This document shows positions 4,343 through 57,670 of a DNA stretch of 64,000 nucleotides, piece after piece. The stretch is taken from the NCBI GenBank assembly GCA_020632265.1, contig JACKFW010000001.1:401892-465891 (forward strand), written 5' to 3'. The stretch comes from Pseudomonadales bacterium. Lineage in GTDB: Bacteria; Patescibacteriota; Microgenomatia; UBA1400; PJMF01. Under the pieces are notes generated by a model, which was given only the letters and a program-made list of their open reading frames with translations, was not told the origin of the DNA and made no database searches. The translations under genes and the position numbers were made by a program. Positions within the stretch are counted from its first letter, which is position 1, and every line of letters begins with the position of its first letter.

Positions 4343-4522
4343 AATTACTCCCAGTATGTTTTATTTGCATTATTATAGCAAATTATTTTCATTTAATTAA
4401 CTTCACATACCAAAAGAGTTTTACTTAAAAAATATATTTATCCTCCTAAGCTGCCTCTTTCATAAAATTATATCTATACAACAATTAAAGACTCAGTGTG
4501 GAAATATCTCAATTAAAAAAAA

Positions 4523-32687: not shown

Positions 32688-32846
32688 ACTCCAATATCTT
32701 TCCTCTGAAAAGATACTGATTTCTTGATATTTTAAATACAAATCATTTTTTATTCCAGACGAGAAGTTCAGTTTTTTCAATGGAGTATTTATACGAAGTT
32801 CAGTGATTATTTGATTTCATAGTGTCTGTACCAAAAAAAGGACACT

Positions 32847-33098
32847 ATGGATAATTACAATTCAAATACACAACAATTTTCTTCTTACGACCTCGGCCTT
32901 GCCGCATCTTTAGTATGCAGCGGCTTTCCTGTCGATTTCTTAGATAAATCAAATCCTCGAAAAGTTGAGTTCTATTTTCAGCGAGCCGATGGCTTGGATC
33001 AAGCCATCCAAATGTATTGGGCTAATCAGTTGCAAGTTCCCGCTCTGTCCTACTTCAATGCCCTGAAAATGCTCAAAAACAGGATATATAGCGAGTAA
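32847..33098 (+). CDS. small conserved protein (paralog of 54918..55166)
   Basis: 83 aa; shares LALAA...GF...YF.ALK.LK.RIY with the equivalent gene upstream of the second primase. Confidence 0.5.
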   Translation: MDNYNSNTQQFSSYDLGLAASLVCSGFPVDFLDKSNPRKVEFYFQRADGLDQAIQMYWANQLQVPALSYFNALKMLKNRIYSE

Positions 33099-33116
33099 CC
33101 ATGCGGAGAAATAAAG

Positions 33117-33302
33117 ATGAATATTACAAAAGACAAGTCCCCATCTCTCCAAACTGAACCTATTGCAGGTAGCTTTTATTCTTTGGCCCAGCTCCTTCAA
33201 GGATTTGCTGAACGACACAACCTTGGTCAACTCTTGGATGAAATGTCACCTGATGAAGCTGTCGATCACGTTCTAAAAAAGAGAAAGGAGAAAAATATGT
33301 AA
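33117..33302 (+). CDS. hypothetical small protein
   Basis: 61-aa ORF. Confidence 0.3.
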   Translation: MNITKDKSPSLQTEPIAGSFYSLAQLLQGFAERHNLGQLLDEMSPDEAVDHVLKKRKEKNM

Positions 33303-33353
33303 GTCTCAACTGCATCAACCCAAACCCAATTACAAATTACACAAAGGAAAAAT

Positions 33354-33740
33354 ATGTCATCAAAAAACATGACGCTAACAGTAAAAACAACAAGTGCTCC
33401 TGAACCAATACCAACAGGCGTATATCAGGCAAAGCTATCAGATCTTGAAAAGAGTGAGGGTGATTTTGGTCCCTATCTTAAACTCACGTTTCTCATTACT
33501 GACGGTGAGCACAAGGATACCGAGAGGACCACCATCGCCAGTATGAAGCTGAGCACAGGTGCTAAAAATACCAAGCTCTACGACATTGTAGCCGCACTTA
33601 TGGGCAAGTCACCTGAAACAAGCACTGAGATTGACCTAGGTGCTTTGGTAGGTAAACCCTGCCAGATACTTGTAAAAGATAAGCCTGGTGATAAAGATGG
33701 CTGGCAAATTATTTCAGAAGTAATGCCAGCGAGTAAATAA
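33354..33740 (+). CDS. hypothetical protein
   Basis: 128-aa ORF with a good RBS just upstream of the primase. Confidence 0.45.
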   Translation: MSSKNMTLTVKTTSAPEPIPTGVYQAKLSDLEKSEGDFGPYLKLTFLITDGEHKDTERTTIASMKLSTGAKNTKLYDIVAALMGKSPETSTEIDLGALVGKPCQILVKDKPGDKDGWQIISEVMPASK

Positions 33741-33755
33741 AACGAAAGCAGGAGG

Positions 33756-36101
33756 GTGTGTCTATTAGGATGCACCCTCCCACAGATTGATATGCCTACT
33801 ATAACAAACCGCACACCAGCAAACAATCAAGAATGGGAAGAGCTTGGTGCATACTACTTGAGCCTTGGTTGGTCCATTATTCCTGTCACGAGAGATAAGA
33901 AACCGTTGGTTAAGTGGAAGAATTTTCAAACCCAAAAGCCAACTACAGAACAAGTTGGCGAATGGGCTTCCAACTCAAAGATAGCTGGTTATGCCCTTGT
34001 CACAGGTTCAATCTCTGGTGTCGTAGTCCTTGATCTTGATGAGGGTTCTGAGTTCGATACCTCTACTTTACCTGCTACACCTTTCTCCCAAACTGGCTCT
34101 GGTGGCCGACATTATTTTTTCAAGTCACCAGAAAAACCTATTAAAAATGCTGCTGGTTTTGTAAAAAATACTGACTTTAGAGGTGAGGGTGGTTACGCCA
34201 TTTTGCCACCCAGCAAACATCCTTCTGGAAATCAATACTTTTGGCTCAGCAGTCCAGAGGATACCAAGCTGGCTGAGATGCCTGGCAGTCTTATTGACTC
34301 AATCAATGGTAACCAACAGCTAATGCTCAGCGTAAAAAGCGATGAAAATGTCTTTGAAGGTGTAGAAAAGTCTACCCGTAATCACTCGGCTACTCAGGTG
34401 GCAGGATCACTTCTGAGTCGTTACCCAAAAGACGAATGGGGAGCAGTTGTTTGGCCTTTACTGCAAGGCTGGAACACACAAAACAAACCGCCTCTTTCAA
34501 CAACCGAGCTAAGAGCTGTATTTGACTCAATTGCTGAGCGTGAACAAGGACAGCCAGATCAAGATGACGGAGGCTCTAATCGACCTAGCCAAGCCAAACT
34601 ATTGGTTGAGATGGTTCTGAGCAGTAGTATCAAACTTTTTACTAATCAGTTCCACGAACCAGTCCTCACTTCCCCTGAAACTGGATTCTTAACCTTCAAG
34701 ATTAGTTCATCAGCTACAAAGCAACTTCTTTTCAAGATGTTCTGGGACAGTGAAGGCAAACCCCCTAGCTCCGAGGCAGTGAATAATGCTCTTACTACGT
34801 TGCAAGGGATTGCCACCTATGACCGAGATAAAATCACTGTTTTTAATCGAGTAGGTAGACATAAAAACACTATCTACTATGACATTGGAGATGGCACTCA
34901 TGTGGTAGTCATCGACAAGGATGGTTGGAGCATTGATAGCAGCTGCCCTGTCTACTTCAACCGTTTCTCACATCAAAAGCCACAAATATTGCCAAAGCGT
35001 GGTGGCAATTTGGAAGAGATCCTTGCTTTCATGAATGTTCAGGACCAACAGCAAAAGTTACTAATCCTAACCTTCTTAGTCGTTAGCTTAATTCCAGATA
35101 TTCCCCGAGCAATGTTAGTACTTCATGGTGATCAGGGTTCAGCAAAATCAAGTTTGCTCCGTATTCTTAGAGAAATGATTGATCCCAGCCAAGTGCCACT
35201 TCTTACTCCACCAGACTCTATACGTGAACTGGTCCAATTTGCCAGTCATCACTACGCTGTCTTTTTGGACAACCTTTCAACGCTTTCAGTGTCATTGTCT
35301 GATGCCCTTTGCCGCCTGATAACTGGTGATGGGTTTACTAAAAGACAACTATTTACTGATGATGAAGACGTACTCTATGCCTACAAGCGAGTAGCTGGCC
35401 TTTGCGGTATCAACCAAGTTGCAACAAAAGCCGATCTTCTTGACCGAAGTATCATCGTACCTTTGGAGCGAATACCTGATGGGGATAGACGTGAAGAGAA
35501 GAACCTGTGGCAACGTTTCAAAACAGACAAAGCTCTTATTCTTGGAGCCTTATTTGATGCCGTAGCTGCCACTCTCCGCACTGTCCATGACATTGAACTT
35601 ACTACCAAACCTCGTATGGCCGATTACTTCAAATACGCCACTGCTGCGGCAATACATCTGGGCTACACCGAACAGGATCTTTCCGATGCCTTTAATCAAA
35701 ACGTTAAGCAACAAAATGAAGAAGCCATAGACTCTTCGCCCGTTGCTCAAACAATTATGGAGTTCATGAGGAATAAATCAAACCAAGAACTACGCAGTTC
35801 AGATCTTTACAAAGAACTTTTTGAAATAGCTGAAAACCTCAAAATCAAACAAGGCTTTCCCAAATCACCTACGTGGCTGTGGCGAAAAATCAAAGATGTC
35901 CGTCCTAATTTGATGGCCTATGGCCTCAATGTCACCAAAGAAAAAATGGAGGATGGCACTTACATAAGAATCATAAAAACTGCCACCACTGCTTCCAGCA
36001 CATCAGCACCAGACAGCTCTGGGCCTGAAAGCACTGGTAACACTGACAACAAAACCGTAGAAAACATGACCGAGGAGGAGATCAAGGAGGCACTCTTCTA
36101 A
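33756..36101 (+). CDS. bifunctional Prim-Pol DNA primase/polymerase fused to D5/P4-type helicase-like NTPase
   Basis: Prim-Pol motifs GVVVLDLDEG (DxD), SQTGSGGRHYFF, GGYAILPPSKHPSGNQYFW; C-terminal Walker A VLHGDQGSAKSSLL; AGGAGG RBS before the GTG start. Confidence 0.8.
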   Translation: MCLLGCTLPQIDMPTITNRTPANNQEWEELGAYYLSLGWSIIPVTRDKKPLVKWKNFQTQKPTTEQVGEWASNSKIAGYALVTGSISGVVVLDLDEGSEFDTSTLPATPFSQTGSGGRHYFFKSPEKPIKNAAGFVKNTDFRGEGGYAILPPSKHPSGNQYFWLSSPEDTKLAEMPGSLIDSINGNQQLMLSVKSDENVFEGVEKSTRNHSATQVAGSLLSRYPKDEWGAVVWPLLQGWNTQNKPPLSTTELRAVFDSIAEREQGQPDQDDGGSNRPSQAKLLVEMVLSSSIKLFTNQFHEPVLTSPETGFLTFKISSSATKQLLFKMFWDSEGKPPSSEAVNNALTTLQGIATYDRDKITVFNRVGRHKNTIYYDIGDGTHVVVIDKDGWSIDSSCPVYFNRFSHQKPQILPKRGGNLEEILAFMNVQDQQQKLLILTFLVVSLIPDIPRAMLVLHGDQGSAKSSLLRILREMIDPSQVPLLTPPDSIRELVQFASHHYAVFLDNLSTLSVSLSDALCRLITGDGFTKRQLFTDDEDVLYAYKRVAGLCGINQVATKADLLDRSIIVPLERIPDGDRREEKNLWQRFKTDKALILGALFDAVAATLRTVHDIELTTKPRMADYFKYATAAAIHLGYTEQDLSDAFNQNVKQQNEEAIDSSPVAQTIMEFMRNKSNQELRSSDLYKELFEIAENLKIKQGFPKSPTWLWRKIKDVRPNLMAYGLNVTKEKMEDGTYIRIIKTATTASSTSAPDSSGPESTGNTDNKTVENMTEEEIKEALF

Positions 36102-36146
36102 TCTCCCCTCCACCCATAACTGTTACTAATAAACCAGGAGAAAACT

Positions 36147-36530
36147 ATGCAATGCACTTATATCAAAGCTAATAATCAATCTTGTAAGGCTCATGCCATG
36201 AAAGGAAGTGAGTTCTGCTTTACTCATAATCCCGAAACTCGTGATGAACACGCCCAAGCTGTAGTGCTTGGTGGACTCAACTCATCCAGAAAAGACAGCA
36301 TTGAGTTACCTGCAATTGATGTTCGCCAACCTGATGGTGTAGTCCAACTTCTGGAAGAAACAATCAACGGCGTTCGTGATGGCAGTATTCCACCTAAAGT
36401 AGCCAGCACTGTTGGTTACTTGGCTGGGCACTTACTCAAAGCCATTGAATCAGCAGACCTCGATAAACGATTAGAAGTGATTGAGCGAGTGATTTTGGAA
36501 CGTAAATCCATAATGAAAGGTTACAAATGA
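36147..36530 (+). CDS. hypothetical protein with Cys-rich N-terminus
   Basis: CTYIKANNQSCKAHAMKGSEFCFTH may be a zinc-binding segment. Confidence 0.45.
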   Translation: MQCTYIKANNQSCKAHAMKGSEFCFTHNPETRDEHAQAVVLGGLNSSRKDSIELPAIDVRQPDGVVQLLEETINGVRDGSIPPKVASTVGYLAGHLLKAIESADLDKRLEVIERVILERKSIMKGYK

Positions 36531-38035
36531 AAAACTTTTCTATCCAAGCACTAGCTGGTGTTTTAACTGCCAAAGAACGAGCCAAAATCATTGCGGAATA
36601 CATCGTTAAAGGTGATGAAACTGGCGAAGACTTAGGCCATGAAATCAACAAGATAAAAATGAACATGAGCAGCAATCAGATAACCGAATTCAACTTCTAC
36701 ATGGATATTATTCAAACCGTTCATGTCGTCATGGAGGCTGACTTTCAAACTATGTACTTGCGATTTTTTCTCTACTCTCAGCAACTCGAAAAAATATATC
36801 AACAATGGTCCATGAGTATTTACAGCCACTTCACTCACCGAGATCTGAACTGGTTACCTAAAATTGTGACTCAACAGGGTTATCAAGAATTGTACGAAGA
36901 ACAAAAAGCCCAAGAACTGTCAGCTGTTTTCTCTTTAGAAACTTTGGCTGAGCATGAGGCACTCGCCAAACTCCAATCAGAAGGTTGGTGGAAAGACACC
37001 GATCTATTTATGGTCCACAAACAGCTGGTAGCTGATGCCAATAAAACCGAGGACCAACTGATAGATGAATATCTTGACCACGTTGAAGAGCGAGTAGCTA
37101 CCTACCTCGAATATAAAGATAAGAAGAATGCTTTTCTACACCTTTATCAGGAATATGCCGAGTATGAAGGCAAGAGTCGTGACGAAATGAGAGAAATGGT
37201 GACAACTAAGTACGACTTTACTCCCACCGATCCAGCAGATACTCAAAAATGGCTTGGTGAGATTGAAAATCAAAAACAACGGCTCCAAAAACTGATTAAC
37301 GAAGGAGTGCTCGAAGCCGCTACAGTTGGCAGTGAGTTTGGTTTTTACGGGACCTCCGAAGATACAGGTAGGCCAGGAATCACGGCTGTTAGTTGGTATA
37401 ACTACTTAGAAAAATACGATACAGACTTCAACGATTTTATTGATGATGTTGATAACTTCATTTATTTTTGCCACAACGATGTAGCCATTATTCAAACCAA
37501 ACAAAGCCAGGAAAAGAAAACTGATGAGCTTACCGCTAATATCATCAAGAAACGATTGCTTGAACACTTAGATCACTTCAACGCCATTACTTACGAACCA
37601 ATAAGCGGTGATAAAAAACTACACCTAGAAGCCAAGACTTTAGAACGAATTAAAGAACTGCTTTTCTCTATATCAGTAATCAAATTAAGACTCCTTGCTT
37701 ATATCAAAGTGATTGAGGCAGTCGAGGACTTTTACTTTGATGGCACTCAGATTGTGTCTCGTAATACTTGGTATGCCAAAGCAGCTCAAGAACACTATGA
37801 TTTTATGCTCCAACAGCATCAACAGTATCTTGATTTTGTCTACAACTATTTTGGCAACTTTACTATTGGCTCAGTGAACCCTATTTTTGACTGCCACGAT
37901 GACCTTCAATTTATAGAACCAAACAAGGAAGAAATTCAAAGAGTTACTAAGGAGCAGATGAGCTTTATGCTGGAAAAAGCGGTAAAGGGCAGCCACTACC
38001 GTCCACCGCGAACTCCATTTGACGAAAGAGTATGA
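36527..38035 (+). CDS. hypothetical protein
   Basis: 502-aa ORF overlapping the upstream gene by 4 nt. Confidence 0.5.
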   Translation: MKNFSIQALAGVLTAKERAKIIAEYIVKGDETGEDLGHEINKIKMNMSSNQITEFNFYMDIIQTVHVVMEADFQTMYLRFFLYSQQLEKIYQQWSMSIYSHFTHRDLNWLPKIVTQQGYQELYEEQKAQELSAVFSLETLAEHEALAKLQSEGWWKDTDLFMVHKQLVADANKTEDQLIDEYLDHVEERVATYLEYKDKKNAFLHLYQEYAEYEGKSRDEMREMVTTKYDFTPTDPADTQKWLGEIENQKQRLQKLINEGVLEAATVGSEFGFYGTSEDTGRPGITAVSWYNYLEKYDTDFNDFIDDVDNFIYFCHNDVAIIQTKQSQEKKTDELTANIIKKRLLEHLDHFNAITYEPISGDKKLHLEAKTLERIKELLFSISVIKLRLLAYIKVIEAVEDFYFDGTQIVSRNTWYAKAAQEHYDFMLQQHQQYLDFVYNYFGNFTIGSVNPIFDCHDDLQFIEPNKEEIQRVTKEQMSFMLEKAVKGSHYRPPRTPFDERV

Positions 38036-38054
38036 AATCAGGGAAAATAGCTAT

Positions 38055-38141
38055 GCACTCAGCTTATAGAAATGGCTTTTTTTAATGGCCGTCTTGGACA
38101 ATTGGAAGTCATTTCTAGTTGAGTGCACCAGGGCGGCCATT
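38055..38141 (+). promoter_or_regulatory. conserved interleaved inverted-repeat element upstream of recombinase A (candidate att/res site or 5'-UTR structure)
   Basis: GCACTCAG(38055-62) / TGAGTGC(38120-26) interleaved with AATGGCCG(38084-91) / CGGCCATT(38134-41); homologous block upstream of recombinase B with compensatory changes. Confidence 0.55.
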
Positions 38142-38152
38142 TAAGTATAAGG

Positions 38153-39772
38153 ATGAATATGTATCAAAGCACAGACACCTCACAATTTGACCACGTTAAG
38201 AACTGTCTCATTTATGCTCGTGTTAGTACTAGCCGACAAGTTGAAGAAGGTCACTCACTCGAAGATCAAATTGAACGCCTAACAAAATTTGCTAAAGATC
38301 GCGAATGGCGAATTTTAGAAGCGTTCAAAGATGGCGGAAAAAGTGGTGGTTCAACATCTGGCCGAGCTGAGTTCAACCGTATGTTGGAACGCTGTGCTGA
38401 TGATCCTGATGTTCACGCAGTGTTACTAGAAGAAACTGATCGTTTTGCTCGTAATGCTCAGGACCACTTGGCCGTCAAATCATTTCTCAAAAAGCATAAT
38501 GTAGTCTTGATTGCTACTCAGCAACCTAATTTTGGTGATGACCCCGTTGGCAATTTTGTTGATCTCATTATGGCTGGTGCTAATCAGCTACAAAGAGAAA
38601 TAACTGGTGTTAAAACCAAGCGAACAATGGTTGGTCTGGCAGAGAAAGGACTACAACCTGGTGGAGCTGTGCTTGGATACCTAAACTCTTACGAAAAAGG
38701 TGTGCCCTGGAAAATTGATAAAGAGCGAGTGTACTATGTAAAAGAAGCCTTCAGCAGATACAACACAGGCAACTACTCCATCCATACCCTTGGTGATGAA
38801 CTATATGCAGAAGGCTTTCGTACTAGAAATGGCAAACGTGTTCATTCAAGTAACATTCAAAAAATCCTAACCGATGTTCGTTATCTTGGTTGGGTAAAGT
38901 ACGATGGCAGAATCTATAAAAATGGCCAACACCCTCAACTTATCAATATCACGGAATTTAAAAAAGCGGAGGCAATTATGAAAAAACATAACAAGGGAGC
39001 AAATAGGTCACGCAAACATAACTGGTTTCTGGCAGGATTAGTCTACTGCCAGCATTGTGGTTCATTGATGTCAGGTGAAAAACATGAGAAAAGTACTGGC
39101 AAAATCTACAAGTACTATCGCTGCATGGGACCTAAAAATCATGGTCATACTTGTAATGAACCATATGCCAATATAGAGAAGGTTCATGACCAACTGTACA
39201 AATGGATTACTGGTTTAGAGTTTACCGATACCTTTTTTGACGGCCTTCGCCAAGAATTGATGTCACTCATGGAAAATCAAGGTGATACTGTCAAAGACAG
39301 GCTGGACACACTCCAAAAACGTAAAGAATCAATAGAAAAGAAAATGGATAAGCTGGAAGATCAAATGCTTTCAGAGGTGATTCCACAGGATAGAATCGAG
39401 AAAAAGTACAAGCCATTGCGAGATGAGCTAACAGCCGTTGAAGCCAAAATCGAAAAGCTGAACAGACCCTCAAATAATATGGATGAAGAAAAGATCGAAA
39501 CGATCATCAAGTTCATGAAACGCTTGCCCGAACTTTATGATGCCTTCAACAAAAAAGAACGTAAACAATTTCTTAAGTGGTTCACCACAAAGATCATGAT
39601 AAAGGATAAGAAAATCGTTGATATTACCTATACACCAGGCTTTCAAGCCATGGTTGATAGAGACATCGTTCGGATAAGCGAAACGTGGCTCCGAGCAATA
39701 GACGCTATTCGAACCTGTGTTATGCAGGAAAATGTTAGATTTTATCGCTTATTAGATGCTCCATTGTCTTAA
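38153..39772 (+). CDS. large serine recombinase (integrase)
   Basis: Catalytic IYARVSTSRQ, DRFARN, recombinase domain, zinc ribbon CQHCGSLMSG...YYRCMGPKNHGHTC, coiled-coil tail. Confidence 0.85.
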   Translation: MNMYQSTDTSQFDHVKNCLIYARVSTSRQVEEGHSLEDQIERLTKFAKDREWRILEAFKDGGKSGGSTSGRAEFNRMLERCADDPDVHAVLLEETDRFARNAQDHLAVKSFLKKHNVVLIATQQPNFGDDPVGNFVDLIMAGANQLQREITGVKTKRTMVGLAEKGLQPGGAVLGYLNSYEKGVPWKIDKERVYYVKEAFSRYNTGNYSIHTLGDELYAEGFRTRNGKRVHSSNIQKILTDVRYLGWVKYDGRIYKNGQHPQLINITEFKKAEAIMKKHNKGANRSRKHNWFLAGLVYCQHCGSLMSGEKHEKSTGKIYKYYRCMGPKNHGHTCNEPYANIEKVHDQLYKWITGLEFTDTFFDGLRQELMSLMENQGDTVKDRLDTLQKRKESIEKKMDKLEDQMLSEVIPQDRIEKKYKPLRDELTAVEAKIEKLNRPSNNMDEEKIETIIKFMKRLPELYDAFNKKERKQFLKWFTTKIMIKDKKIVDITYTPGFQAMVDRDIVRISETWLRAIDAIRTCVMQENVRFYRLLDAPLS

Positions 39773-39938: not shown

Positions 39939-41735
39939 TTACAAGCTTTGGTAGTATCTCTTAATTTTCTCAGCCATTAACTTTCTTCTTTCCGCTAAGA
40001 AAGTTTCATAATCCAACAAATCAGCTTCTAAAATCATTTCTGGAATACAGTTTTGTTGCAAATTGTTTAATAGCTCATCATGGTCAGTAATAGCACCATA
40101 TAACATGTCGCTATTTTGAATTTGCTCTACAATCATAGAAAAGTAGGCTTTTGGCTCCTTGTTGCCAATTTTGATATTAGTTTCTGATTGCATGTATACG
40201 TAATTGGCTATTTGGTTGTACTCACTTCGTTTCTTGCCATTCTTCTTTAGAAAATCTCTGGGAAACAAGTGATGAATATCGCCTCTGTGAGTAATCAAAT
40301 CTTGTACAGTAATTTCTCTAGATAAAAATCCTTTATCCTTATCTTTCACTTGTGCAGCCAAATACACATTAAAATAGGGACTGGTAGAAACAGAGGTATT
40401 TAAGCTCTGTACTAGACTGGCTGACCAAAAAGCTTCAGATAAATCGGCTGCTTCGACATCCTCCAGATACTTTTCAATAGATTCTTCAGAAATTTTCTTA
40501 ATATCAAAATCCATTTGGGATTCTGGAGAACCTGAGTATCTTCCCGTGAGTATTGAGAGCACAAACCAGCGTCTTACGAATCTTTCAATCTTCTCTGGTG
40601 GATAATTTAGCGATTTTAACTTGAGGTAAACAATGTAGGCAAAATTAAGAGCATTACCAGACCTGATCATTGATTTATCAATAAAACCAGTTGATTTGAT
40701 AATCATTAAAAATCTCTTAAAATTTGTTTCATTCACAAAGCTAGTTACTGAGCTCTTTAATCGTGCAAAAGTATCCTCAGCAATTTCTTCCTCGTAGGTA
40801 CGAGTTTCAAAATTTCTTCCAGAAAGTAAGCCGACCAAATCAGCTAGTTTTCCTCTGCCAAACTCACTCACAAAAGAAACTCTCAAAACATCTTTGTAAT
40901 CTGGATCATACAAATCATCATTTTCGTCTTTTAACCATCTTAAGTGTGAATAGTAGTCACCCTTAACAAAGGTTTCATCAACTTCACTCATGCGAGCGTA
41001 AAAATCAGGAGCAACTGCCAAATGACAGAAATAATCAATACATTTTCGTAGTTCTGGACCACCATATTGATCATTTGAGGCAATCTTACTCATCGCAAAG
41101 TCTGCCTGACTCAAAACTACTCCCTGGCTATTAATACGCACAAAAATTTCTGTGACAGTTTCAATATCAAGCTCCCCGCTTAATTCAATTAAACCAATTT
41201 GTTTTTTAACCATGCCCTGCAATCTCTGCAAAACTGCTTCAATGGTTTCTTCACTGGCTGAAGGGTTTTTCTCGCAATAATCTCTGATAAGTTTCAATAA
41301 ACTTATGTTTCCTTGAATAACTGCTGAAATATCAGGAATCCAAGACACATCCTTTTCAATAGCTGGGTTAAATACCTCAAACTTTTCTTTGAGTGGATGG
41401 AATGCGATTTGAATACGTTTTTTCCTGTATTCTTGATCGATAATTTGTTCACCAAGTATGGCTGCAGCCATAGCAGTTACACGCTGTTGTCCATCAATCA
41501 AAATTTTTTTACCTTCTGAAGAACTACCATCTTTTAGACGAATACTTGGATTTCTCCAAGAAATCAAATACCCAATCGGATAACCCTGATAAAGTGAGTC
41601 CATGAGGTTTCTAACTTTAGTTGCATCCCAGACAAAAGGTCTTTGTATTTCTGGAATAGCTATCTCTCCAGACTTGACCCATACTAATATGGTATCGATT
41701 AAATGTTGATTAACAGAGTATTTTTGTAGTTGCAT
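39939..41735 (-). CDS. GmrSD-family type IV restriction endonuclease (DUF262 plus DUF1524)
   Basis: N-terminal ParB-like IPEIQRPFVW and LIDGQQRVTA (DGQQR); C-terminal His-Me finger DIHHLFPRDFL. Confidence 0.75.
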   Translation of the reverse strand: MQLQKYSVNQHLIDTILVWVKSGEIAIPEIQRPFVWDATKVRNLMDSLYQGYPIGYLISWRNPSIRLKDGSSSEGKKILIDGQQRVTAMAAAILGEQIIDQEYRKKRIQIAFHPLKEKFEVFNPAIEKDVSWIPDISAVIQGNISLLKLIRDYCEKNPSASEETIEAVLQRLQGMVKKQIGLIELSGELDIETVTEIFVRINSQGVVLSQADFAMSKIASNDQYGGPELRKCIDYFCHLAVAPDFYARMSEVDETFVKGDYYSHLRWLKDENDDLYDPDYKDVLRVSFVSEFGRGKLADLVGLLSGRNFETRTYEEEIAEDTFARLKSSVTSFVNETNFKRFLMIIKSTGFIDKSMIRSGNALNFAYIVYLKLKSLNYPPEKIERFVRRWFVLSILTGRYSGSPESQMDFDIKKISEESIEKYLEDVEAADLSEAFWSASLVQSLNTSVSTSPYFNVYLAAQVKDKDKGFLSREITVQDLITHRGDIHHLFPRDFLKKNGKKRSEYNQIANYVYMQSETNIKIGNKEPKAYFSMIVEQIQNSDMLYGAITDHDELLNNLQQNCIPEMILEADLLDYETFLAERRKLMAEKIKRYYQSL

Positions 41736-41744
41736 TGTGACTTC

Positions 41745-43250
41745 CTATTTTACTAACTTTTGTAATTCTTCATAAATTCTGACCATGGCGTAGGTATCCA
41801 AAGTACAGTATTTGCTGAGATTTTCCATAATCTCGGCTCTTCTGTCCTGGTGCTTGTCCTCTAAAACAGTTTGTGTCCACATTCTTCTGGCTAGTAAACC
41901 ATTGTTTACATCCAATTCTTTATAACTAAGCTCAGGTGCCATTACTGGCAACACTTTTTTAACTGAGGCACTACCGAAAAAATCTTTGTGGAAATACCAC
42001 ATTTCAGAAAATGGGATCATGAGGTCGTTAATTCGCTCGTTAAGCTCCATTAAAAACTCAGAATATTCTGGATAAAGAGCTGCCATCCGATCGTTGCATC
42101 CCTTTTCATAACTCATATTCCAAGCCAAAACTGTTCCTTCATCCCCAATATCCTGTTTAAGCTGACTTAATAAGCCTGGCATGGGATTGGAATTGTCAGC
42201 ATGCAAATATTCATAATGTTCAACTTCGCTTGTCGGTGATCTAAGTATATGAAGTGAATATTGAAATGGGTAATCTTTATATGGACTCATCCCATCAAAA
42301 GTTGGAATGATAGAAGACATAGTTTCGTAGTCAAAAAAATAGAGTGGATATTGAAATGTATCTAAAAATTCCTTGATCTTCTCTTTATCAACCAGCGGCT
42401 TGTCTTCTCTAGTGGTTTTGATTTGAGCAAACTGCTTGGGTCGTAAAACCAACTCATCAGGCACATCAGCAATCCTTGTTATACCAGTATCTTCTAGCTT
42501 GCCAATTTGTTCACTGCTGGGATAACTTAATTCGTACACATTGTAAGGGTCAGTATTTGGCTTTAGCAATTTAAAAATGCCCATCCATTCTTGAAACCAT
42601 TGAGAAACACCAGGAATTCCGACTTTGTTTACATACCTTGGTGAAATATCTGGCATTGTTGAACTATTCAACACAGCTTGAGCAGCTAAAATTTGCTGCT
42701 CTGTAACATCTGAAAGAGATCGAACTTTATCAGTGATATCAGTTTGGGTACAAAATTGTTGTACATCAATAGCTCCATCTCTCACATAATCTTTGTTTGC
42801 ATGGATGACGACAATATTTCTTACCTTATAATCAGATTTTTCTAATACTAATAATTGAAAAGCCAAGTCATATTCATGTTCAGGCTTGGCTTTAGTAGTT
42901 GATTTAATTTCAATCAAATCAAATTCTTTTTCACCTACTTTTTGCAATACGTCAAAAATACAAGTTAAGCCACTTGCTTCTAATCTTCCTTGCAAAATAA
43001 CTTGAGTGCCATTGTTAATTTCATTAAGTGTTTTGTCTGCCAACGCCAAATAGCTGTCGTAATTACTAAACCCAAGTCTCACTGCTCCAGGAAATAACTG
43101 TTCAGCATAGCTCTCAAACTCGTGTCCCACATCAAACATGGCTTGTGTGTCTTCATCAATCGGTGGCAGCTTAGACTTGTCATACTTTTTCAACCAGAGC
43201 CACGCTGGATGACGGAGAAAAAGCATGTAGTCGGATTTGGAAAGTGTCAT
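41745..43250 (-). CDS. PD-(D/E)XK nuclease-like protein (DUF2779-like)
   Basis: FDVLQKVGEKEFDLIEIKSTTK gives D...EIK core; co-operonic with hsdR. Confidence 0.5.
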   Translation of the reverse strand: MTLSKSDYMLFLRHPAWLWLKKYDKSKLPPIDEDTQAMFDVGHEFESYAEQLFPGAVRLGFSNYDSYLALADKTLNEINNGTQVILQGRLEASGLTCIFDVLQKVGEKEFDLIEIKSTTKAKPEHEYDLAFQLLVLEKSDYKVRNIVVIHANKDYVRDGAIDVQQFCTQTDITDKVRSLSDVTEQQILAAQAVLNSSTMPDISPRYVNKVGIPGVSQWFQEWMGIFKLLKPNTDPYNVYELSYPSSEQIGKLEDTGITRIADVPDELVLRPKQFAQIKTTREDKPLVDKEKIKEFLDTFQYPLYFFDYETMSSIIPTFDGMSPYKDYPFQYSLHILRSPTSEVEHYEYLHADNSNPMPGLLSQLKQDIGDEGTVLAWNMSYEKGCNDRMAALYPEYSEFLMELNERINDLMIPFSEMWYFHKDFFGSASVKKVLPVMAPELSYKELDVNNGLLARRMWTQTVLEDKHQDRRAEIMENLSKYCTLDTYAMVRIYEELQKLVK

Positions 43251-43267
43251 ATTTTTGTTTACAATTT

Positions 43268-46200
43268 TTAACTATTTACATGCTTCTTAAAATTTTCAGC
43301 TTGCTCAAAAATATCTTTATATGCTTCATCATGGGCAATTGGTGGATAATCATTCTCTGATAACAACACTACTAGATCAGCACGAAGCTCAGCTTTGATA
43401 TCTGCCCTTTCATCCCAAGCTGGATAACGAGTTTTATCATCGACAACTTCTTTTACTTTCTTAGATAATTCAAGCAAGCGATCCTCAGGATATTCAAAAT
43501 CATATTTAATAGTCAAAGCTTTTAAGATGTCATAAAATGATTTTTCTTCAATATCAATTCCAAGTTGTTTAAATGATTCTTTCTCATCTCCCAATTCATT
43601 AACTAAGTTAATAATTTCTTCCGTGAATTCTTCTAAAACTTTACTAATTAATACGTCTTGTTCCTTTCGGTTATTGTATTTATCAACAAGTTTTTTAAAT
43701 CGATCTGCAAATTCTATGCCCTTAACTTTATTTATCTTCTTAAGTGCATTTATCTCCTTTTCTAACAACATCTCCAACAAGCGTATTTTCGCATTTGGCA
43801 TTTTAATCTTACGGATTTTCTCAAGGAAATCAGGGTCAAATAAATTTATTTCTTTGGAAGATTTATCTCCTAGTTTGAAAATTTCTTCAACCCCTTCACT
43901 TTGCAATGCTTCATGCACCATCTCAGTTACCACTTTATTCATCTGAGCTGTGTCAGGTGCATTGCCACGCGTTAATTTAAAAACAATTGTCCGTACAGCA
44001 AGATAAAAGTGAATTCGATCACGCTCGCTATTATCAAAAGCCTCTAGATTGCCAGCACAAATATCATATGCTGCTTTTAGTCTACGACAGAATTCTATAA
44101 AGCGTTTTTCTTGTTCATCACTGCGCATAACAAATTCTGCACTAAGATTTAGAGCCATTAAACGCTCAACAGCGCTCCCATCAAAATAGACATCTTTTTG
44201 AGTAAATCCATGAAAATACTTATCAAGTAAGTCTAGGTAATCTTTAGTGTTTTTTATTGCTTTTTCAATATCTTCAATCGTAGTACCTGCGCCACCACCA
44301 CTACCATATTGACCGAGTGCCTTGTTCATTTCTCGTTTAAAGCCAAAGTAATCAACAACTAAGCCTCGATCTTTAGTTTTGTATTTGCGATTTACTCGTG
44401 AGATGGTTTGTATAAGTGTGTGCTTGCTGAGTGGTTTATAGATATACATGGTATCTAGGGATGGCACATCAAAACCAGTCAGCCACATGTCAACATTAAT
44501 AATGACTTTTAGATTAGATTTGTCACTTTTGAATTGCTTGGCAAGTTTATCGTGATAGGCTTTATCTCCAGCTATGTCCCACATATCTTGACTGTCGTTG
44601 TTGCCACGATTCATAACTAATTTAATTCGTTCAATTGGGTACAGTTCCTGTCTTTGTGTTTCATTTAAACCTTCCAAGTCTACAGCCTCCCGAACCTCAG
44701 CCCATGCTGGTCTAAGATTTAGTATTTCTGTATACAGACTGAATGCAATGGGGCGTGATGGACAAACCAACATAGCCTTTTCTGCAATGGTTGCTCCTTC
44801 ATTTATTCGCCCTTCGTAGTGGTTGACAAAATCTATTGCAATTGCACGTATTACATCTGGATCACTAAGCAGCACGGTCATTCTAGACATCTGCTTTTTA
44901 CTTTCTTCTACCTGATATTCACTTGCACCAACTTCAATAGACTCTTGATAATAATCTTCAATTTCTTTGAGAGATTCTTCATTTAATCGAACCCTTGCAG
45001 CGCGTCCTTCATAAACAATTGGGACAGTAATCTCATCAAAAACCGATTCTGTCATTGTGTATTGGTCAACTACTTCTCCAAAAACATCAAATGTTGCATC
45101 TATTGGTGTTCCAGTAAAGCCAACATAAGTTGCATTTGGCAGAGAATCGTGAAGATACTTGGCAAAACCATATGTAACTTCAGTACCATCTTCGGTGATC
45201 TTTACTTTTTGATCAAGGTTAGTTTGTGAACGATGCGCCTCGTCAGAAATACAAATAATATTTGAGCGATCACTTAATAAACCAGCTGATTCAGTAAATT
45301 TGTGTATTGTTGTCAAAAATACGCCACCACTCTCGCGACCACCTAAAAAATTGCCAAGCTCACTTCGACTCTCTACATTGGTTATGTTTTCTTCACCAAA
45401 GAATTTTTTTGCTTCTACAAATTGCCCCGTTAGTTGGTCATCAAGATCAACACGATCGGTAATGAGCACTATTGTTGGGTTTTCAAATTCAGGACTACGC
45501 ATTAAGAGACGTGTGAGATACAGCATTGCATAACTTTTTCCAGAGCCAGTTGCCCCAAAATATGTTCCACCTTTTCCATCACCTTCTGGTCTCATCGCCT
45601 TATAAATACTTTTATAAAGTTTAGTTGCAGCAAAATATTGAGGATAACGACAAACAATTTTTTCTTCTTTTTTACTACTATCAGGGAAGAAAATAAAATC
45701 TTTAGTTACTTCCAATAATCTTTCCTTGGTAAATAATCCATCTATCATTGTTACAAGTGAGTCAATGCCCTCGCTTTCAACCACTTCATCACCAGTCACT
45801 TTACGCCAAGCATAATAATACTCATAAGCAGCAAAAAATGAACCCATCTTGCTGTTTACACCATCACTAATCACACATAACGCGTTGTACAAAAATAATG
45901 AAGGGATATCACGCTTATATCTTTTGGTAATCTGCTCAAAAGCGTCGAAAATAGTTGCTTCTTCACGAGTGGTTGATTTGAATTCAAATACGACTAAAGG
46001 CAGACCATTGATATAAATTAGAGCATCTGGTATTCGATAAGGCGTGTAGTTTTCTAAAATTTGCAACTGATTAACCACTTTATAGGTATTGTTATTAGTA
46101 CTTTCAAAGTCTATAAACCGAATCAAAATGTCTTTTTGAGATCTGTCAAAGCGAGTCAATTTATATCCATCCTGCAACCAGCGAATAAATTTTCTATTAC

Positions 46201-46438
46201 TGTCATAGAGTAAGGCACTGTCAAGCGATTCTAGTTCCCTGATTAAAAAATCTATCTCTTCTGAAGTTATACCCTCTTTTTCATACTGTTTCCTGAGATA
46301 GTTTCGAATATCATCTTTGATGAGCACATCGGTTATTTCTCGATTGAGGATATTTTCACCTAACAAATGTTCATAACCCTTATCAGTTAGCATTTCTACT
46401 ATTGCTTCTTCTAGTTGTTGCTCTGTAAATATACTCAT
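43268..46438 (-). CDS. hsdR: type I restriction enzyme R subunit
   Basis: 1056 aa; Walker A GATGSGKSYAMLYL, DEAH box ISDEAHRSQ, helicase motifs. Confidence 0.9.
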   Translation of the reverse strand: MSIFTEQQLEEAIVEMLTDKGYEHLLGENILNREITDVLIKDDIRNYLRKQYEKEGITSEEIDFLIRELESLDSALLYDSNRKFIRWLQDGYKLTRFDRSQKDILIRFIDFESTNNNTYKVVNQLQILENYTPYRIPDALIYINGLPLVVFEFKSTTREEATIFDAFEQITKRYKRDIPSLFLYNALCVISDGVNSKMGSFFAAYEYYYAWRKVTGDEVVESEGIDSLVTMIDGLFTKERLLEVTKDFIFFPDSSKKEEKIVCRYPQYFAATKLYKSIYKAMRPEGDGKGGTYFGATGSGKSYAMLYLTRLLMRSPEFENPTIVLITDRVDLDDQLTGQFVEAKKFFGEENITNVESRSELGNFLGGRESGGVFLTTIHKFTESAGLLSDRSNIICISDEAHRSQTNLDQKVKITEDGTEVTYGFAKYLHDSLPNATYVGFTGTPIDATFDVFGEVVDQYTMTESVFDEITVPIVYEGRAARVRLNEESLKEIEDYYQESIEVGASEYQVEESKKQMSRMTVLLSDPDVIRAIAIDFVNHYEGRINEGATIAEKAMLVCPSRPIAFSLYTEILNLRPAWAEVREAVDLEGLNETQRQELYPIERIKLVMNRGNNDSQDMWDIAGDKAYHDKLAKQFKSDKSNLKVIINVDMWLTGFDVPSLDTMYIYKPLSKHTLIQTISRVNRKYKTKDRGLVVDYFGFKREMNKALGQYGSGGGAGTTIEDIEKAIKNTKDYLDLLDKYFHGFTQKDVYFDGSAVERLMALNLSAEFVMRSDEQEKRFIEFCRRLKAAYDICAGNLEAFDNSERDRIHFYLAVRTIVFKLTRGNAPDTAQMNKVVTEMVHEALQSEGVEEIFKLGDKSSKEINLFDPDFLEKIRKIKMPNAKIRLLEMLLEKEINALKKINKVKGIEFADRFKKLVDKYNNRKEQDVLISKVLEEFTEEIINLVNELGDEKESFKQLGIDIEEKSFYDILKALTIKYDFEYPEDRLLELSKKVKEVVDDKTRYPAWDERADIKAELRADLVVLLSENDYPPIAHDEAYKDIFEQAENFKKHVNS

Positions 46439-47556
46439 ATTACTGTCTCCATACAGATATCTTTTGCATTCTTTATGAGAACTGGACTTATTTCTTTAGT
46501 AATTTTTTTAAGTTTTTGAGTAAGTTTTTTGCGACTTTGCAATGCACGATGTATTTCCACGATTGATTTTTGTACTTCTATAGGTGGTACTGGCAAACGA
46601 ACTCTTTGCATTTCAGACCAATCAAAAGTCTCTCGAGCGCTACCCCATGAATTGTATCGAGCATAGCGATCAAACTCTGGTCTTTTAAACCATAGTAATA
46701 AGAACTCAGGAAGTAACTTTGATTTATCAGTTAGTTTGAATGTTTGATAAGTGCTTGATATAACACATGGTTTCCAATCGTCATTAAGAGCAATTGATAA
46801 CTTCTCACCATTTCTAGAAGTAACAGTCACATAAGCAAACTGTTCTGGTTGTACAACTTTATAGTTATCTAAACTGACGCCATTCATATTAGCTTTAGAT
46901 TCTATGAACTTCTTCTTAATCGAAATTCCTTTTAGATCACTACTACCAAGTTCATGATTGCGCTCATCAGTAGCTTGAATGTATTCTCCAAGCTCTTTCA
47001 TTCCGTATTGTTTAACTAAGTTTTCAGTAAAAGTATTGGAAATAAGTTGTAAATCAGAAAAGCTATTTTCGTGATTATCGATAAGTTTTAGTAAATTACC
47101 ATAAATCTTTACATATTCTCTTTGTTTTTCAATGGGTGGTAGTGGTATTTCAATATTTTGCATATTGATCCAATCAAAAGTGTCTCTGGTGCTACTCCAC
47201 GCATTGAATGCCGCATATCTGTCAAATTCTTCTCTACTGAGATATATCAATAAATATTGGGGATGCAATATGTTGGTATTTATCACTTTAAATGCCACAT
47301 AAGATGGAGATACAAGTATGGGATGCTCATATGAAGACAAGGCCAAAGCTAAAGGCTTAAATGGATTCATTCTTGGAATATAAGCAAACTCATTTTTATG
47401 TACGATAAAATGATTAGATAAATTCTCTCTATTAACCTTCCCTGCAGGTTCACGAAAAACCTTTTTTTCACTAATTCCAACCAAATAATCTAATGAATCA
47501 TCGTTATTTTTGTCTGTTATTCGTTGAATGAAATCACCAAGTTTTTTATATTTCAT
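46435..47556 (-). CDS. hsdS: type I R-M specificity subunit
   Basis: Two TRDs each followed by the conserved repeat FDRYA.FN.W.S.R.TFDW..MQ...P.PPIE.Q. Confidence 0.85.
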   Translation of the reverse strand: MKYKKLGDFIQRITDKNNDDSLDYLVGISEKKVFREPAGKVNRENLSNHFIVHKNEFAYIPRMNPFKPLALALSSYEHPILVSPSYVAFKVINTNILHPQYLLIYLSREEFDRYAAFNAWSSTRDTFDWINMQNIEIPLPPIEKQREYVKIYGNLLKLIDNHENSFSDLQLISNTFTENLVKQYGMKELGEYIQATDERNHELGSSDLKGISIKKKFIESKANMNGVSLDNYKVVQPEQFAYVTVTSRNGEKLSIALNDDWKPCVISSTYQTFKLTDKSKLLPEFLLLWFKRPEFDRYARYNSWGSARETFDWSEMQRVRLPVPPIEVQKSIVEIHRALQSRKKLTQKLKKITKEISPVLIKNAKDICMETVI

Positions 47557-49102
47557 ATCCTAAGCCTTTAAATGCCTCCCTCAGTTCCTTTTCTGCGGTT
47601 GTTTCTTCACTCAATATCTTGCTCATATCTTTTTGGATTCGTTTCATTTCTTTGTCAAAGTCTATTGTGTTATCTCGATCAACAAACTCAATGTACTTAC
47701 TTGGAACAAGACTGAAATCATTATTTTTGATTTCATCAAAACTCACACCTCGACATGTTTCTGGAATATCTTGGTAATCTCCATCAACTTCTTGCCATGA
47801 GTGAAGGATGTTACTCGCTTTGGAAATATCTTCGGGTGTCAGTTCTATGTATTTTTTCTCAAATTCACTACCCCAAGTGCGTAAATCCATAAACAAAATT
47901 TCTCTTTCTCGGTCTCGCAATTTCCTATTGTCATCTCCAACTTGAACATCTCGTGCTTTTTTATTTTTACTTAAAATCCAAAGAGTAACTGAGATATCAG
48001 TACTGTAAAAAGTATTTCGTGGCAAAACAATGATTGCTTCTACAAGATTATTCTCAATGAGGCGACGACGAATGTTTCTGGTATCACTATCGCTTAACGC
48101 GCCATTAGCTAGCAAAAATCCTGCAGTTCCATTAACACTCAATTTACTCACAATATTAAGAATCCAGGCGTAGTTAGCATTACTAACTGGAGGAACATCA
48201 TAGCCTGCCCAACGGGGGTCATCTTTCAATTCACTCTCAGCACGCCAATCCTTTTGGTTGAATGGTGGATTAGCCATAACATAATCCGCCTTAAGGTCCT
48301 TATGTTGATCGTTTGCAAATGTATCGGCATTTGTTTTGCCCAGATTTCCCGAAATGCCTCTTAGTGCCAAGTTCATTTTGGCAAGACGATAGGTTGTATC
48401 AATAGATTCCTGTCCAAAGACGGCAACTTTCTTAGTATCACCTTTGTGAGCTTCAATAAATTTGAGGGACTGCACAAACATGCCACCTGAACCACAACAA
48501 GGGTCATAAATCTTTCCACTATATGGCTCGATCATCTCGGCGATAAGATTAACTGTGCTTTTTGGAGTATAAAATTCTCCCTTACCCTTTCCCTCTAGTA
48601 CTGCAAATTTTTGCAAGAAGTATTCATAAATTCGTCCCATCAAATCAAATGATTCATCCCCAATATGAATATTATTGTTAATGTGATCAATAAGAGCGGC
48701 GATTTTTGAGCTGGATAGGTTCAATCGTGAATAGTAGTTATCAGGTAATGCGCCTTTTAAACTAGGATTATTTTTTTCAATATTGTTTAGAGCTGTATCA
48801 AGTTTAATTGAGATATCGCTCGACTTAGCGTTTTTAACAATATAGCTCCAACGAGACTCTTCAATTAGGTAAAAGACGTTATCTTTTTGATAAAACTCCT
48901 TCATCTCAATAAACTTAGTCTTACCCTCATTTGTAAGTTTCTCTCGTTGCAGTTCAAATTTATCACTGACAAACTTCAAAAATAATAAAGGCAAGGTTAC
49001 ATGTTTATATTCTGCAGCTTCAACAACACCTCTTAAGGTTTTTGCGATATCGTTATAGAGAATTTCCTCTAATGCTTTCGTTTTATTTTTAGATTTAGCC
49101 AT
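47546..49102 (-). CDS. hsdM: type I R-M N6-adenine DNA methyltransferase subunit
   Basis: NPPF motif VMANPPFNQKDW and AdoMet motif I DPCCGSGGMFV; start trimmed to MAKSK (49102). Confidence 0.9.
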   Translation of the reverse strand: MAKSKNKTKALEEILYNDIAKTLRGVVEAAEYKHVTLPLLFLKFVSDKFELQREKLTNEGKTKFIEMKEFYQKDNVFYLIEESRWSYIVKNAKSSDISIKLDTALNNIEKNNPSLKGALPDNYYSRLNLSSSKIAALIDHINNNIHIGDESFDLMGRIYEYFLQKFAVLEGKGKGEFYTPKSTVNLIAEMIEPYSGKIYDPCCGSGGMFVQSLKFIEAHKGDTKKVAVFGQESIDTTYRLAKMNLALRGISGNLGKTNADTFANDQHKDLKADYVMANPPFNQKDWRAESELKDDPRWAGYDVPPVSNANYAWILNIVSKLSVNGTAGFLLANGALSDSDTRNIRRRLIENNLVEAIIVLPRNTFYSTDISVTLWILSKNKKARDVQVGDDNRKLRDREREILFMDLRTWGSEFEKKYIELTPEDISKASNILHSWQEVDGDYQDIPETCRGVSFDEIKNNDFSLVPSKYIEFVDRDNTIDFDKEMKRIQKDMSKILSEETTAEKELREAFKGLGYEI

Positions 49103-49103
49103 A

Positions 49104-49283
49104 CTATTCTTTCTGATTGATAAACTTATTAATCTCACTTAATTTAAATCTTCTATCGCCTCGCTCATTAATAACCACAGCCTTTAGCTTTCCTTCGTTG
49201 TCCCATTTGCGAAGAGTCGCGGGGCTGACGCCTAACAATTTCGCCGCTTCTTTAATTCTTAATAATCTTGCAGATTTATCCAT
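49104..49283 (-). CDS. small HTH DNA-binding protein (MerR/AlpA-Xis-like), not in ORF track
   Basis: 59 aa MDKSARLLRIKEAAKLLGVSPATLRKWDNEGKLKAVVINERGDRRFKLSEINKFINQKE; stop 1 nt from hsdM start. Confidence 0.55.
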   Translation of the reverse strand: MDKSARLLRIKEAAKLLGVSPATLRKWDNEGKLKAVVINERGDRRFKLSEINKFINQKE

Positions 49284-49433
49284 AACTTACATTTACTTGT
49301 AATTAATTGCACATATATTTTAGCTCTTTAACATGCGGCTTGTCACAGGCAAAACTTAGAATATTTGACTTGTGTAGTGATTACACGCACACACTTTCAA
49401 GAAAATATTATTTTTTTATTTATTTCACTAAGA

Positions 49434-50333: not shown

Positions 50334-50344
50334 ATACCAATTTT

Positions 50345-51671: not shown

Positions 51672-52027
51672 TTAAGGGCAGGCAACGAGGCGTATTCTGT
51701 TTCCAACCTCTACTGTATTTTACATTCTTTACCTAAAAAGTTATAAACCAATTTACTACCTCGAGTGGCTCTTGTTTAATAAAATCAATAAACAAGTCAT
51801 TTGATCAACACTTTTTCCAATAGAATTTGCTGTTAATTTTCCTCTAGAAATTGATTTTGTGGTAATTGCAACTCGAGTTAATTGGCAGTTATTTACTTAC
51901 AGTCACTAAAATAGTTGTTTTTAATATTTTTATCTCAAGTACAGCTGAAGTATCGGACAGTAAGCCAGAGGTTAACTACACGATGAGCTACTATTATGAG
52001 CCGACAGACAAAAACAAAAAAGGCGCT

Positions 52028-52666: not shown

Positions 52667-52673
52667 ACTTGAT

Positions 52674-57612: not shown

Positions 57613-57670
57613 ACATAAATACATTAAATAAAAGTTTGTGATTTTGGAGGAAAAATAGTATAATAACAGT

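Follow-up and report, generated by a model that had tools for sequence, protein, structure and literature searches.

Large serine recombinases drive the integration of prophages and islands and are leading tools for the insertion of large DNA into genomes; to our knowledge, little is known of how their own synthesis is controlled. The window examined here (the whole 64,000-nt stretch of DNA that was analyzed) contains two such genes, designated A and B. A preliminary description, made from the sequence alone, had noted interleaved inverted repeats just upstream of both genes and had offered three readings of them: an attachment or crossover site, an autoregulatory operator, or an RNA structure in the 5' untranslated region that controls translation. 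The question addressed below is which of these the blocks are and how they might act.

The window sequence was re-read, and every string lay where it had been reported. In copy A, these are GCACTCAG (38055), AATGGCCG (38084), TTGGACA (38094), TGAGTGC (38120), and CGGCCATT (38134); in copy B, they are GCACTCAG (57671), AATGCCC (57698), CTGAGTGCACCA (57728), and GGGCATT (57744). The a-b-a'-b' order of the interleaved pairs was also correct in both blocks. The stretches TGCACTCAG, TTTTTAATG, TTGGACA, and CTGAGTGCACCAG are identical between the copies. The blocks are two copies of one structured RNA motif, 80-87 nt in length, with the following parts.

38055-38141, plus strand: leader RNA motif, copy A, 87 nt (covariance model 61.1 bits, E 3.9e-11; fold z = -4.63)
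38055-38063 with 38118-38126, plus strand: P1 of copy A
38067-38078 with 38106-38117, plus strand: P2 of copy A
38079-38083, plus strand: U-run of copy A
38084-38097 with 38128-38141, plus strand: pseudoknot of copy A
38098-38100 and 38127, plus strand: ACA and linker A, respectively, of copy A
38099-38105 with 38115-38121, plus strand: alternative hairpin of copy A
57671-57750, plus strand: leader RNA motif, copy B, 80 nt (covariance model 83.7 bits, E 2.5e-16; fold z = -3.75)
57671-57679 with 57727-57735, plus strand: P1 of copy B
57683-57691 with 57718-57726, plus strand: P2 of copy B
57693-57697, plus strand: U-run of copy B
57698-57711 with 57737-57750, plus strand: pseudoknot of copy B (3' strand GUGGGGGC, Shine-Dalgarno (SD)-like)
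57712-57714, plus strand: ACA of copy B
57713-57718 with 57725-57730, plus strand: alternative hairpin of copy B

Both pairs of the preliminary description are real, and both had been drawn too short. The outer pair is in fact a 9-bp helix (P1, consensus G-NNNN-CA-NN), and the inner pair is a 14-bp helix formed by AAUGSSCNNNUUGG with CCAGNNNSSSCAUU. A third helix, P2, had been overlooked; it is an inner hairpin of 9-12 bp whose sequence is free, and its loop holds the 5' strand of the inner pair. The consensus of this loop is U5-AAUGSSCNNNUUGG-ACA, the central 14 nt of which pair with the tail CCAGNNNSSSCAUU that comes after P1 and a single A. Given this position in the P2 loop, the topology is that of a hairpin-loop-to-3'-tail pseudoknot across P1.

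Further copies were retrieved using two patterns. The strict one, derived from the conserved unpaired parts (TTTTTAATG-N6-TTGGACA-N12-42-GCACCAG), found 18 loci in species-representative genomes, whose titles name Patescibacteria (Woesebacteria, Roizmanbacteria, Gottesmanbacteria, WWE3), candidate division TM6, Bacteroidota, one Acidiferrales genome, and several "Gammaproteobacteria" metagenome bins. The looser pattern found at least 120 metagenome loci. Altogether, more than 130 further copies were present in genomes and metagenomes, the hosts being Patescibacteria, Dependentiae, Bacteroidota, and others, for the most part uncultivated; after duplicates and six chance matches were dropped, 113 unique copies were retained among the matches listed. 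Annotated phage and plasmid collections had no match to the motif. In viral contigs, the strict pattern had 0 matches and the relaxed pattern yielded no true copy (the match L139 was rejected as a coding-region false positive without a model score). When the whole window was compared to Rfam 15 at the gathering threshold, only LOOT and a tRNA were returned; at E values up to 10, block A had only chance-level microRNA/snoRNA matches and block B had none. A search of the full-text literature returned nothing on the motif. Judging from these searches, the motif is a widespread RNA family that was not previously described.

A covariance model was constructed from 24 gap-free copies; it comprised P1 and P2 only, with the pseudoknot left out. 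With this model, 101 copies were recovered (in the window and in 99 loci among the matches listed), and these constituted the alignment used. Although built solely from loci outside the window, the model matched the window exactly twice, with scores of 61 and 84 bits, which is far above what chance would give. In the 101 sequences (among the matches listed), P1 is 98.1% paired with compensatory changes in six of nine pairs, P2 is 94.4% paired with such changes in all nine, and the pseudoknot is 99.5% paired; two-sided changes occur in 21 of 32 pairs and in all three helices. The six central pairs of the pseudoknot display GC, CG, AU, UA, and UG and are 99% paired in the alignment (again among the matches listed). 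Because the pseudoknot was absent from the model and these six pairs were free in both search patterns, their pairing constitutes an unbiased test. The covariation score was 0.589, compared to 0.159 for shuffled alignments (0 of 500 reached 0.589) and 0.06-0.12 when the partners were slid. Thus, the covariation originally claimed from two copies was borne out on 101 sequences, in which the three helices are 94-99.5% paired.

That AAUG, UUGGACA, CACCAG, and CAUU do not vary is in part a consequence of the patterns used for searching. Four loci that were found via the protein, with no DNA pattern, carry the test into these ends: in L152-154, UCAG/CUGG replaces UUGG/CCAG, a double change that keeps the pseudoknot, and L149 features an extra pseudoknot pair (UUUGG/CCAAG). 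The unpaired U5, ACA, and linker A are conserved, also in copies found without a DNA pattern. Mimicry of a tRNA acceptor stem (G1-C in P1, then ACCA, with tRNA 3' ends as targets) was considered and rejected in view of the CUGG and CCAAG variants, which have compensating changes in the loop. Since these pattern-free variants compensate there, the constraint is on pairing, not on a CCA sequence.

The folding strand was evident from the mismatches. Among the non-Watson-Crick cells of the alignment (among the matches listed), 253 are G-U/U-G and 19 are A-C/C-A; the variable mismatches of the pseudoknot are nearly all T-G in one orientation (59 G-U vs. 4 A-C). Because the opposite strand would render every G-U an A-C, it is the sense strand that folds. 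The pseudoknot mismatches, along with the covariation of the two other, non-concentric helices, suit folding as RNA rather than a dyad read as DNA. Both sense strands fold far better than shuffled ones (z = -4.6 for A and -3.8 for B), and the antisense strand of A folds poorly (z = -1.9).

The genes that follow the blocks, and the spacer that precedes the first of them, are these.

38142-38159, plus strand: spacer of copy A (UAAGUAUAAGGAUGAAU), with its own SD-like AAGGA at 38150-38154
38160-39772, plus strand: large serine recombinase A (Pfam; start aligned with that of L001; alternative ATG at 38153; mechanical ORF from GTG at 38123)
57755-59455, plus strand: large serine recombinase B (Pfam; start 4 nt past the pseudoknot; stop inside a tRNA gene)

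Both proteins have the full domain set of large serine recombinases, i.e. a resolvase catalytic domain, a recombinase domain, and a zinc ribbon (Pfam Resolvase, Recombinase, and Zn_ribbon_recom at 7e-26, 8e-11, and 1e-10 for A and at 7e-18, 2e-7, and 1e-6 for B). The start codon of B does come soon after the block, as had been reported (4 nt, at 57755). That of A had been taken as the ATG at 38153; it is likely at 38160, which has AAGGA before it and aligns with L001. The two recombinases are only 24% identical, and the blocks, in a motif that is ~80% identical among its copies, are far better conserved than the genes. The copies are therefore not the product of a recent duplication, a possibility that had been raised against their significance.

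A serine recombinase is located downstream in 16 of 16 genome loci that have enough downstream sequence. Among the matches listed, the recombinase ATG lies 3-24 nt past the pseudoknot (mode 6) in 69 of 113 unique copies, and the recombinases behind the motif are very diverse: they fall into 51 clusters at 70%, with 30% as their median pairwise identity. The preliminary description had also held that homologs without any such structure would count against it. Ten relatives of recombinase B (49-69% identical) were sampled via the protein database, and both kinds were present: four carry the motif, and in the other six the gene lies directly against the ORF upstream of it, leaving no separate leader. 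The motif is thus not required for recombinase function. A split recombinase was observed in L152-L154 (2160-2504 and 2501-3883), where a 114-aa resolvase-domain ORF and a 460-aa ORF overlap by 4 nt. The split is found in six 90%-identity clusters from different samples (P0024, P0025, P0030, P0032, P0034, P0052), with the leader motif kept; instead of decay, it may reflect programmed frameshifting or a recombinase made in two parts.

The relationship of the pseudoknot to the ribosome site was assessed in the 69 copies (among the matches listed) that have the ATG nearby. The 3' strand of the pseudoknot is SD-like (GAGG/GGGG) in 32 of them, and an SD-like tetramer is present in 13 of the 69 spacers between pseudoknot and ATG. 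None of the 32 copies with an SD-like 3' strand has an SD in the spacer, as opposed to 13 of the other 37. In about half of the family, therefore, the pseudoknot covers the only SD. In most of the remaining copies, the end of the pseudoknot would fall inside the ribosome footprint. In copy A and 12 other loci, the SD is at least 9 nt downstream of the pseudoknot, and occlusion is less obvious there.

Upstream, promoter-like sites were found at the same distance from both copies.

38019-38048, plus strand: promoter-like site of copy A (TTGACG, 18 nt, GAAAAT); the -10 ends 6 nt before the motif
57636-57664, plus strand: promoter-like site of copy B (TTGTGA, 17 nt, TATAAT); the -10 ends 6 nt before the motif

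A TATAAT-like (sigma-70-type) -10 box was identified in 106 of 110 loci among the matches listed, and in 95 of 110 the distance from its end to the initial G of P1 is exactly 6 nt. Judging from this spacing, transcription would start at that G. With the -10 box so fixed, the structure starts at the predicted first transcribed base and reaches the start codon; thus, it would be the whole leader. Two other leader devices were sought and rejected. In neither block is a stem followed by a U-run, as it would be in an intrinsic terminator or attenuator, and an upstream ORF from the conserved AUG of the loop was, upon inspection, not conserved between subtypes in length, frame, or stop.

The alignment also provides evidence of a second conformation. 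The CANN that comes after the loop is complementary to the same NNUG that closes P1 (its last 4 bp), and 98.9% of the cells are paired. The three columns involved vary together (A/A/U 44, G/G/C 33, and six other combinations), and both pairings are kept in 98 of 98 sequences among the matches listed, on 10-13 different P1 backgrounds. RNAalifold preferred a nested fold featuring the 14-bp helix and a small hairpin (CANN.../...NNUG). For the 98 sequences among the matches listed, the energies of the two folds, from calculations that cannot score pseudoknots, were nearly equal (-30.7 ± 4.2 vs. -30.0 ± 2.4 kcal/mol), and the 5' domain alone adopted P1 and P2 in 94. Pairing in the inner portion of the alternative hairpin reaches only 68%; the second state thus rests mainly on the four covarying pairs and the energies. 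On these grounds, the leader RNA appears to be two-state, with either P1 and P2 intact or the full 14-bp helix accompanied by the small hairpin.

The borders of the surrounding elements, which bear on the attachment-site reading, are defined by the following features.

32843-39692, plus strand: integrative element A (91.7% identity to L005 over exactly that span; Pfam)
39686-39692, plus strand: right junction of element A, TGGCTCC (reverse complement of the tRNA ...GGAGCCA 3' end; relatives diverge after it)
59443-59515, minus strand: tRNA-Asn(GTT), the 3' end of which faces and overlaps the end of recombinase B

Element A consists, in order, of a DUF5659 protein, a 128-aa ORF, a Prim-Pol/PriCT primase, a 127-aa ORF, a 502-aa ORF, the promoter and leader, and the recombinase. 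Element B has the same plan, with a DUF5659 protein, a Prim-Pol primase, small ORFs, a promoter, the leader, and the recombinase. The DNA homology of element A with five independent relatives stops at 39692, 80 nt before the recombinase stop codon; past the junction, L008, L078, and L100 have the reverse complement of a tRNA 3' end, with the tRNA gene on the opposite strand. The junction of element B is at ~59443-59455, where the 3' end of the recombinase gene is beside the tRNA 3' end, and tRNA-Asn(GTT) is the integration target of this element. With the recombinase 3' ends at the junctions, both elements are situated at tRNA 3' ends, and the leader is ~1.6 kb away. When compared to the junction of its own locus, the motif was neither more identical nor more complementary than to those of other loci (average longest match of 7.4 nt vs. 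7.1 nt). Guide-like complementarity to the att junction, a candidate that was also tried, was not above this background, which additionally argues against a guide-RNA role.

Several other observations were made on these elements and their surroundings. The last codons of both recombinases come from flanking DNA, namely a degenerate tRNA-like remnant for A (39693-39772) and tRNA-Asn for B (59443-59455); where the element integrates thus alters the C-terminus of the recombinase. L005, L006, and L008 (from bins labeled Gammaproteobacteria, Pseudomonadales, and Woesebacteria) match element A at 90-92% identity along as much as 6.85 kb, which reflects either very recent inter-phylum transfer or mis-binned contigs. 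What is probably the left end of element B carries a LOOT RNA (RF03000; 53774-53892, minus strand), oriented opposite to leader B and ~3.8 kb upstream of it. The layout of LOOT plus leader recurs in two unrelated motif loci (L049, 8373-8498; L043, 8226-8352), and LOOT therefore appears to be part of this recombinase element family. The DNA between the elements is a defence island (39939-53682, minus strand): a GmrSD-type restriction enzyme is encoded at 39939-41735, a type I restriction R subunit, with ORFs next to it, at 43268-46438, and an AbiU2 HEPN protein at 50973-51671. Tandem repeats with periods of 12 and 18 nt (61699-61971) occur in or beside a minus-strand ORF (60554-62062) and are unrelated to the motif.

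About 31 of the 113 copies among the matches listed are ~300 nt, or a tRNA gene, away from the recombinase start. In these loci, termed class II, the tail consequently does not abut the ribosome site. Downstream of the motif and a conserved UAAGUU come, in turn, a 33-bp sequence, a hairpin, and a box. In L061, a real tRNA gene is present on the opposite strand, and the box is the reverse complement of its 3' end. In ten class II loci, an inverted copy of the 33-bp sequence occurs 180-300 nt later, up to the SD and ATG of the recombinase.

Motif +80 to +450: repeat-flanked segment of ~300 nt with 33-bp inverted repeats (GTTTTGTTCTTTAAAATTTTTGCGTTTTTCTTT), in L018, L027, L038, L055, L079, L089, L093, L096, L103, and L121

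This segment starts 6 nt after the motif and holds tRNA 3'-end remnants, and its two 33-bp copies change together. Class II also includes L058, L061, L067, L084, and L125. In other loci, the left repeat is followed directly by a hairpin and an opposite-strand tRNA gene; in L125 and L062, parts of the insert are in the opposite orientation beside tRNA genes. Class II could be an insertion whose RNA is folded out of the way, the integration of a minimal recombinase cassette between a tRNA and a resident promoter-motif module, or a DNA inversion. One further locus, L033, contains a degenerate second motif copy (4313-4386, 36 bits) that lacks the 5' strands of P1 and P2; it is 2.3 kb upstream of the intact copy, and the class II repeat comes next.

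Of the readings offered at the outset, a 5'-UTR RNA controlling translation fits the fixed promoter distance, the start codon 3-24 nt on, and the 3' strand that is SD-like in half of the copies. On balance, we favor the interpretation that the motif is a cis-acting, probably two-state, translational control RNA that accounts for the whole 5' leader of the recombinase mRNA; the output, judged from its placement in the sequence, would be an effect on translation. In the nascent RNA, the P2 hairpin would form first, followed by P1. The 3' tail, ending 3-24 nt before the start codon, would then nucleate on the P2 loop and pair with it. The resulting pseudoknot of up to 14 bp would be in the ribosome landing zone, and translation of the recombinase would be held down or gated. 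Pairing over more than one helical turn would need P2 and P1 to be opened, a cost that the alternative hairpin, made from the freed 3' halves of P2 and P1, could pay. Candidate triggers of the shift are the refolding time after transcription, a protein (e.g. the recombinase), a small molecule, or temperature.

Other explanations were weighed against this one. A role as a DNA site, whether an att/res crossover or a double-stranded operator for the recombinase, is largely refuted and retains the least probability of all. Many phage serine integrases do have attP beside the gene, the 14-bp arms do form an inverted repeat, and the repeat-flanked segment of class II starts 6 nt past the motif. However, the element junctions are ~1.6 kb off, at the recombinase 3' ends and tRNA 3' ends; P1 and P2 covary yet are not symmetric about any single center; G-U outnumbers A-C by 253 to 19; and the match of the motif to its own junction is no better than that to others (7.4 vs. 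7.1 nt). The same covariation and G-U excess render an autoregulatory operator read as DNA unlikely. Binding of a protein to the leader as RNA is possible. The specific proposal that the recombinase, or another protein of the element, binds the folded leader and represses or traps initiation, as S15 does on rpsO mRNA and gp32 on its own mRNA, is unlikely in our estimation. The pseudoknot is located at the ribosome site, mobile-element recombinases are commonly autoregulated, and conserved helix ends (AAUG/CAUU, UUGG/CCAG) around a freely covarying center are what a protein site of shape plus sequence would be expected to have. Yet a nearly constant RNA beside recombinases whose median identity is 30% fits poorly with co-evolution of the two, and no other protein is universally beside the motif.

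A metabolite or second-messenger riboswitch, in which a ligand would stabilize the pseudoknot and tie recombinase synthesis to a cell signal, is judged quite unlikely. It would suit the hairpin-loop-to-tail pseudoknot with its SD-like 3' strand (32 of 69 copies among the matches listed), the conserved unpaired U5, ACA, and linker A, the near-equal energies of the two states, and the presence of the motif in several phyla, which fits a universal ligand. No pocket is obvious, however: the inter-helix junctions vary in sequence and length, and the conserved bases are nearly all within the pseudoknot helix. The sole associated gene is the recombinase, which gives no metabolic clue, and no Rfam riboswitch model matches at E values up to 10. 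That the RNA stays with the recombinase of the same message as a partner in recombination (a scaffold, directionality cofactor, or guide) is very improbable, even though its place in the recombinase gene leader is that of IS110 bridge RNAs, its conservation far exceeds that of the protein, and in class II it is found with its promoter but with no recombinase ORF next to it, where it might be an independent RNA. Against such a partnership, all variable positions are paired internally, leaving no variable single-stranded loops; complementarity to the junctions was not found; and neither recombinase A nor recombinase B lacks any of the Recombinase and zinc-ribbon domains, serine recombinases being known to recognize att sites via protein domains. 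Finally, P1 begins at the predicted first transcribed base, as a passive 5'-terminal stabilizer might, and transposase and recombinase genes often carry constitutive folds that occlude the ribosome site; but a stabilizer or damper that does not switch would have no need for three covarying helices, for the conservation of U5 and ACA, or for NNUG to covary with a second partner, and we accord this explanation hardly any weight.

The two-state translational control RNA that we favor was compared to known systems. SAM-II (RF00521), SAM-V, and preQ1-II (RF01054) are likewise compact leaders, with pairing between a tail near the start codon and either a hairpin loop or a 5' strand; they share with many motif copies an SD-like stretch in the 3' strand and with the motif a U-rich strand beside the pseudoknot. 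Unlike them, the motif has a far longer pseudoknot (14 bp) that spans the extra helix P1, a covarying alternative hairpin, and a downstream gene that is always a serine recombinase rather than one for metabolism or transport of a ligand; no similarity in sequence or model (Rfam) was found. The E. coli rpsO/S15 and alpha-operon/S4 leaders and that of phage T4 gene 32 also place a pseudoknot just upstream of or over the initiation region and share the logic of 30S entrapment or occlusion; however, they are single-lineage and are bound by the protein they encode, whereas the motif is common to ~30%-identical recombinases across phyla. Fold-back inhibition in IS10 and the 5' stem-loop of IS200 are precedents for a mobile-element recombinase whose translation is limited by its own leader, keeping levels low. 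Those leaders are simple hairpins without deep conservation, in contrast to a three-helix pseudoknot with a family-wide consensus on serine recombinases. Like hok-type mRNAs and metastable leaders, the motif appears to have two exclusive, similarly stable folds, the first-formed of which differs from the nested alternative; hok-type mRNAs differ in having an antisense partner and 3' processing, and refolding of the motif is suggested by covariation and energies only. The IS110 bridge RNA is also a structured non-coding RNA in the recombinase leader of a small mobile element. Its recombinase, however, is of the DEDD (RuvC-like) type and its loops are programmable, whereas the motif accompanies the serine type, its variable positions are paired, and it has no complementarity to target or donor. 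The motif belongs to none of these families. We classify it as an RNA family that is itself new but whose general kind is known; the pseudoknot across its closing helix is unusually long, and its alternative fold covaries.

The finding provides a new RNA family for curated databases and an example, open to experiment, of a pseudoknot whose alternative fold also covaries. It is also a marker of 6-7 kb tRNA-targeting elements (DUF5659, Prim-Pol, recombinase, and sometimes LOOT RNA) in organisms with poorly charted mobile elements, and a compact candidate switch for synthetic biology. There is a small chance that the leader is a true sensor, i.e. the first riboswitch class dedicated to a site-specific recombinase, or a cofactor RNA that works with the serine recombinase (in directionality or cis-preference); if it were a sensor, a mobile element would time its integration and excision by a host signal. 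In class II, the same promoter-motif module is separated from the recombinase gene and has tRNA genes and 33-bp inverted repeats as its neighbors, which leaves room for a DNA rearrangement that links or unlinks the recombinase and the leader. The conservation of one RNA on ~30%-identical recombinases across phyla implies a common, portable device for their control.
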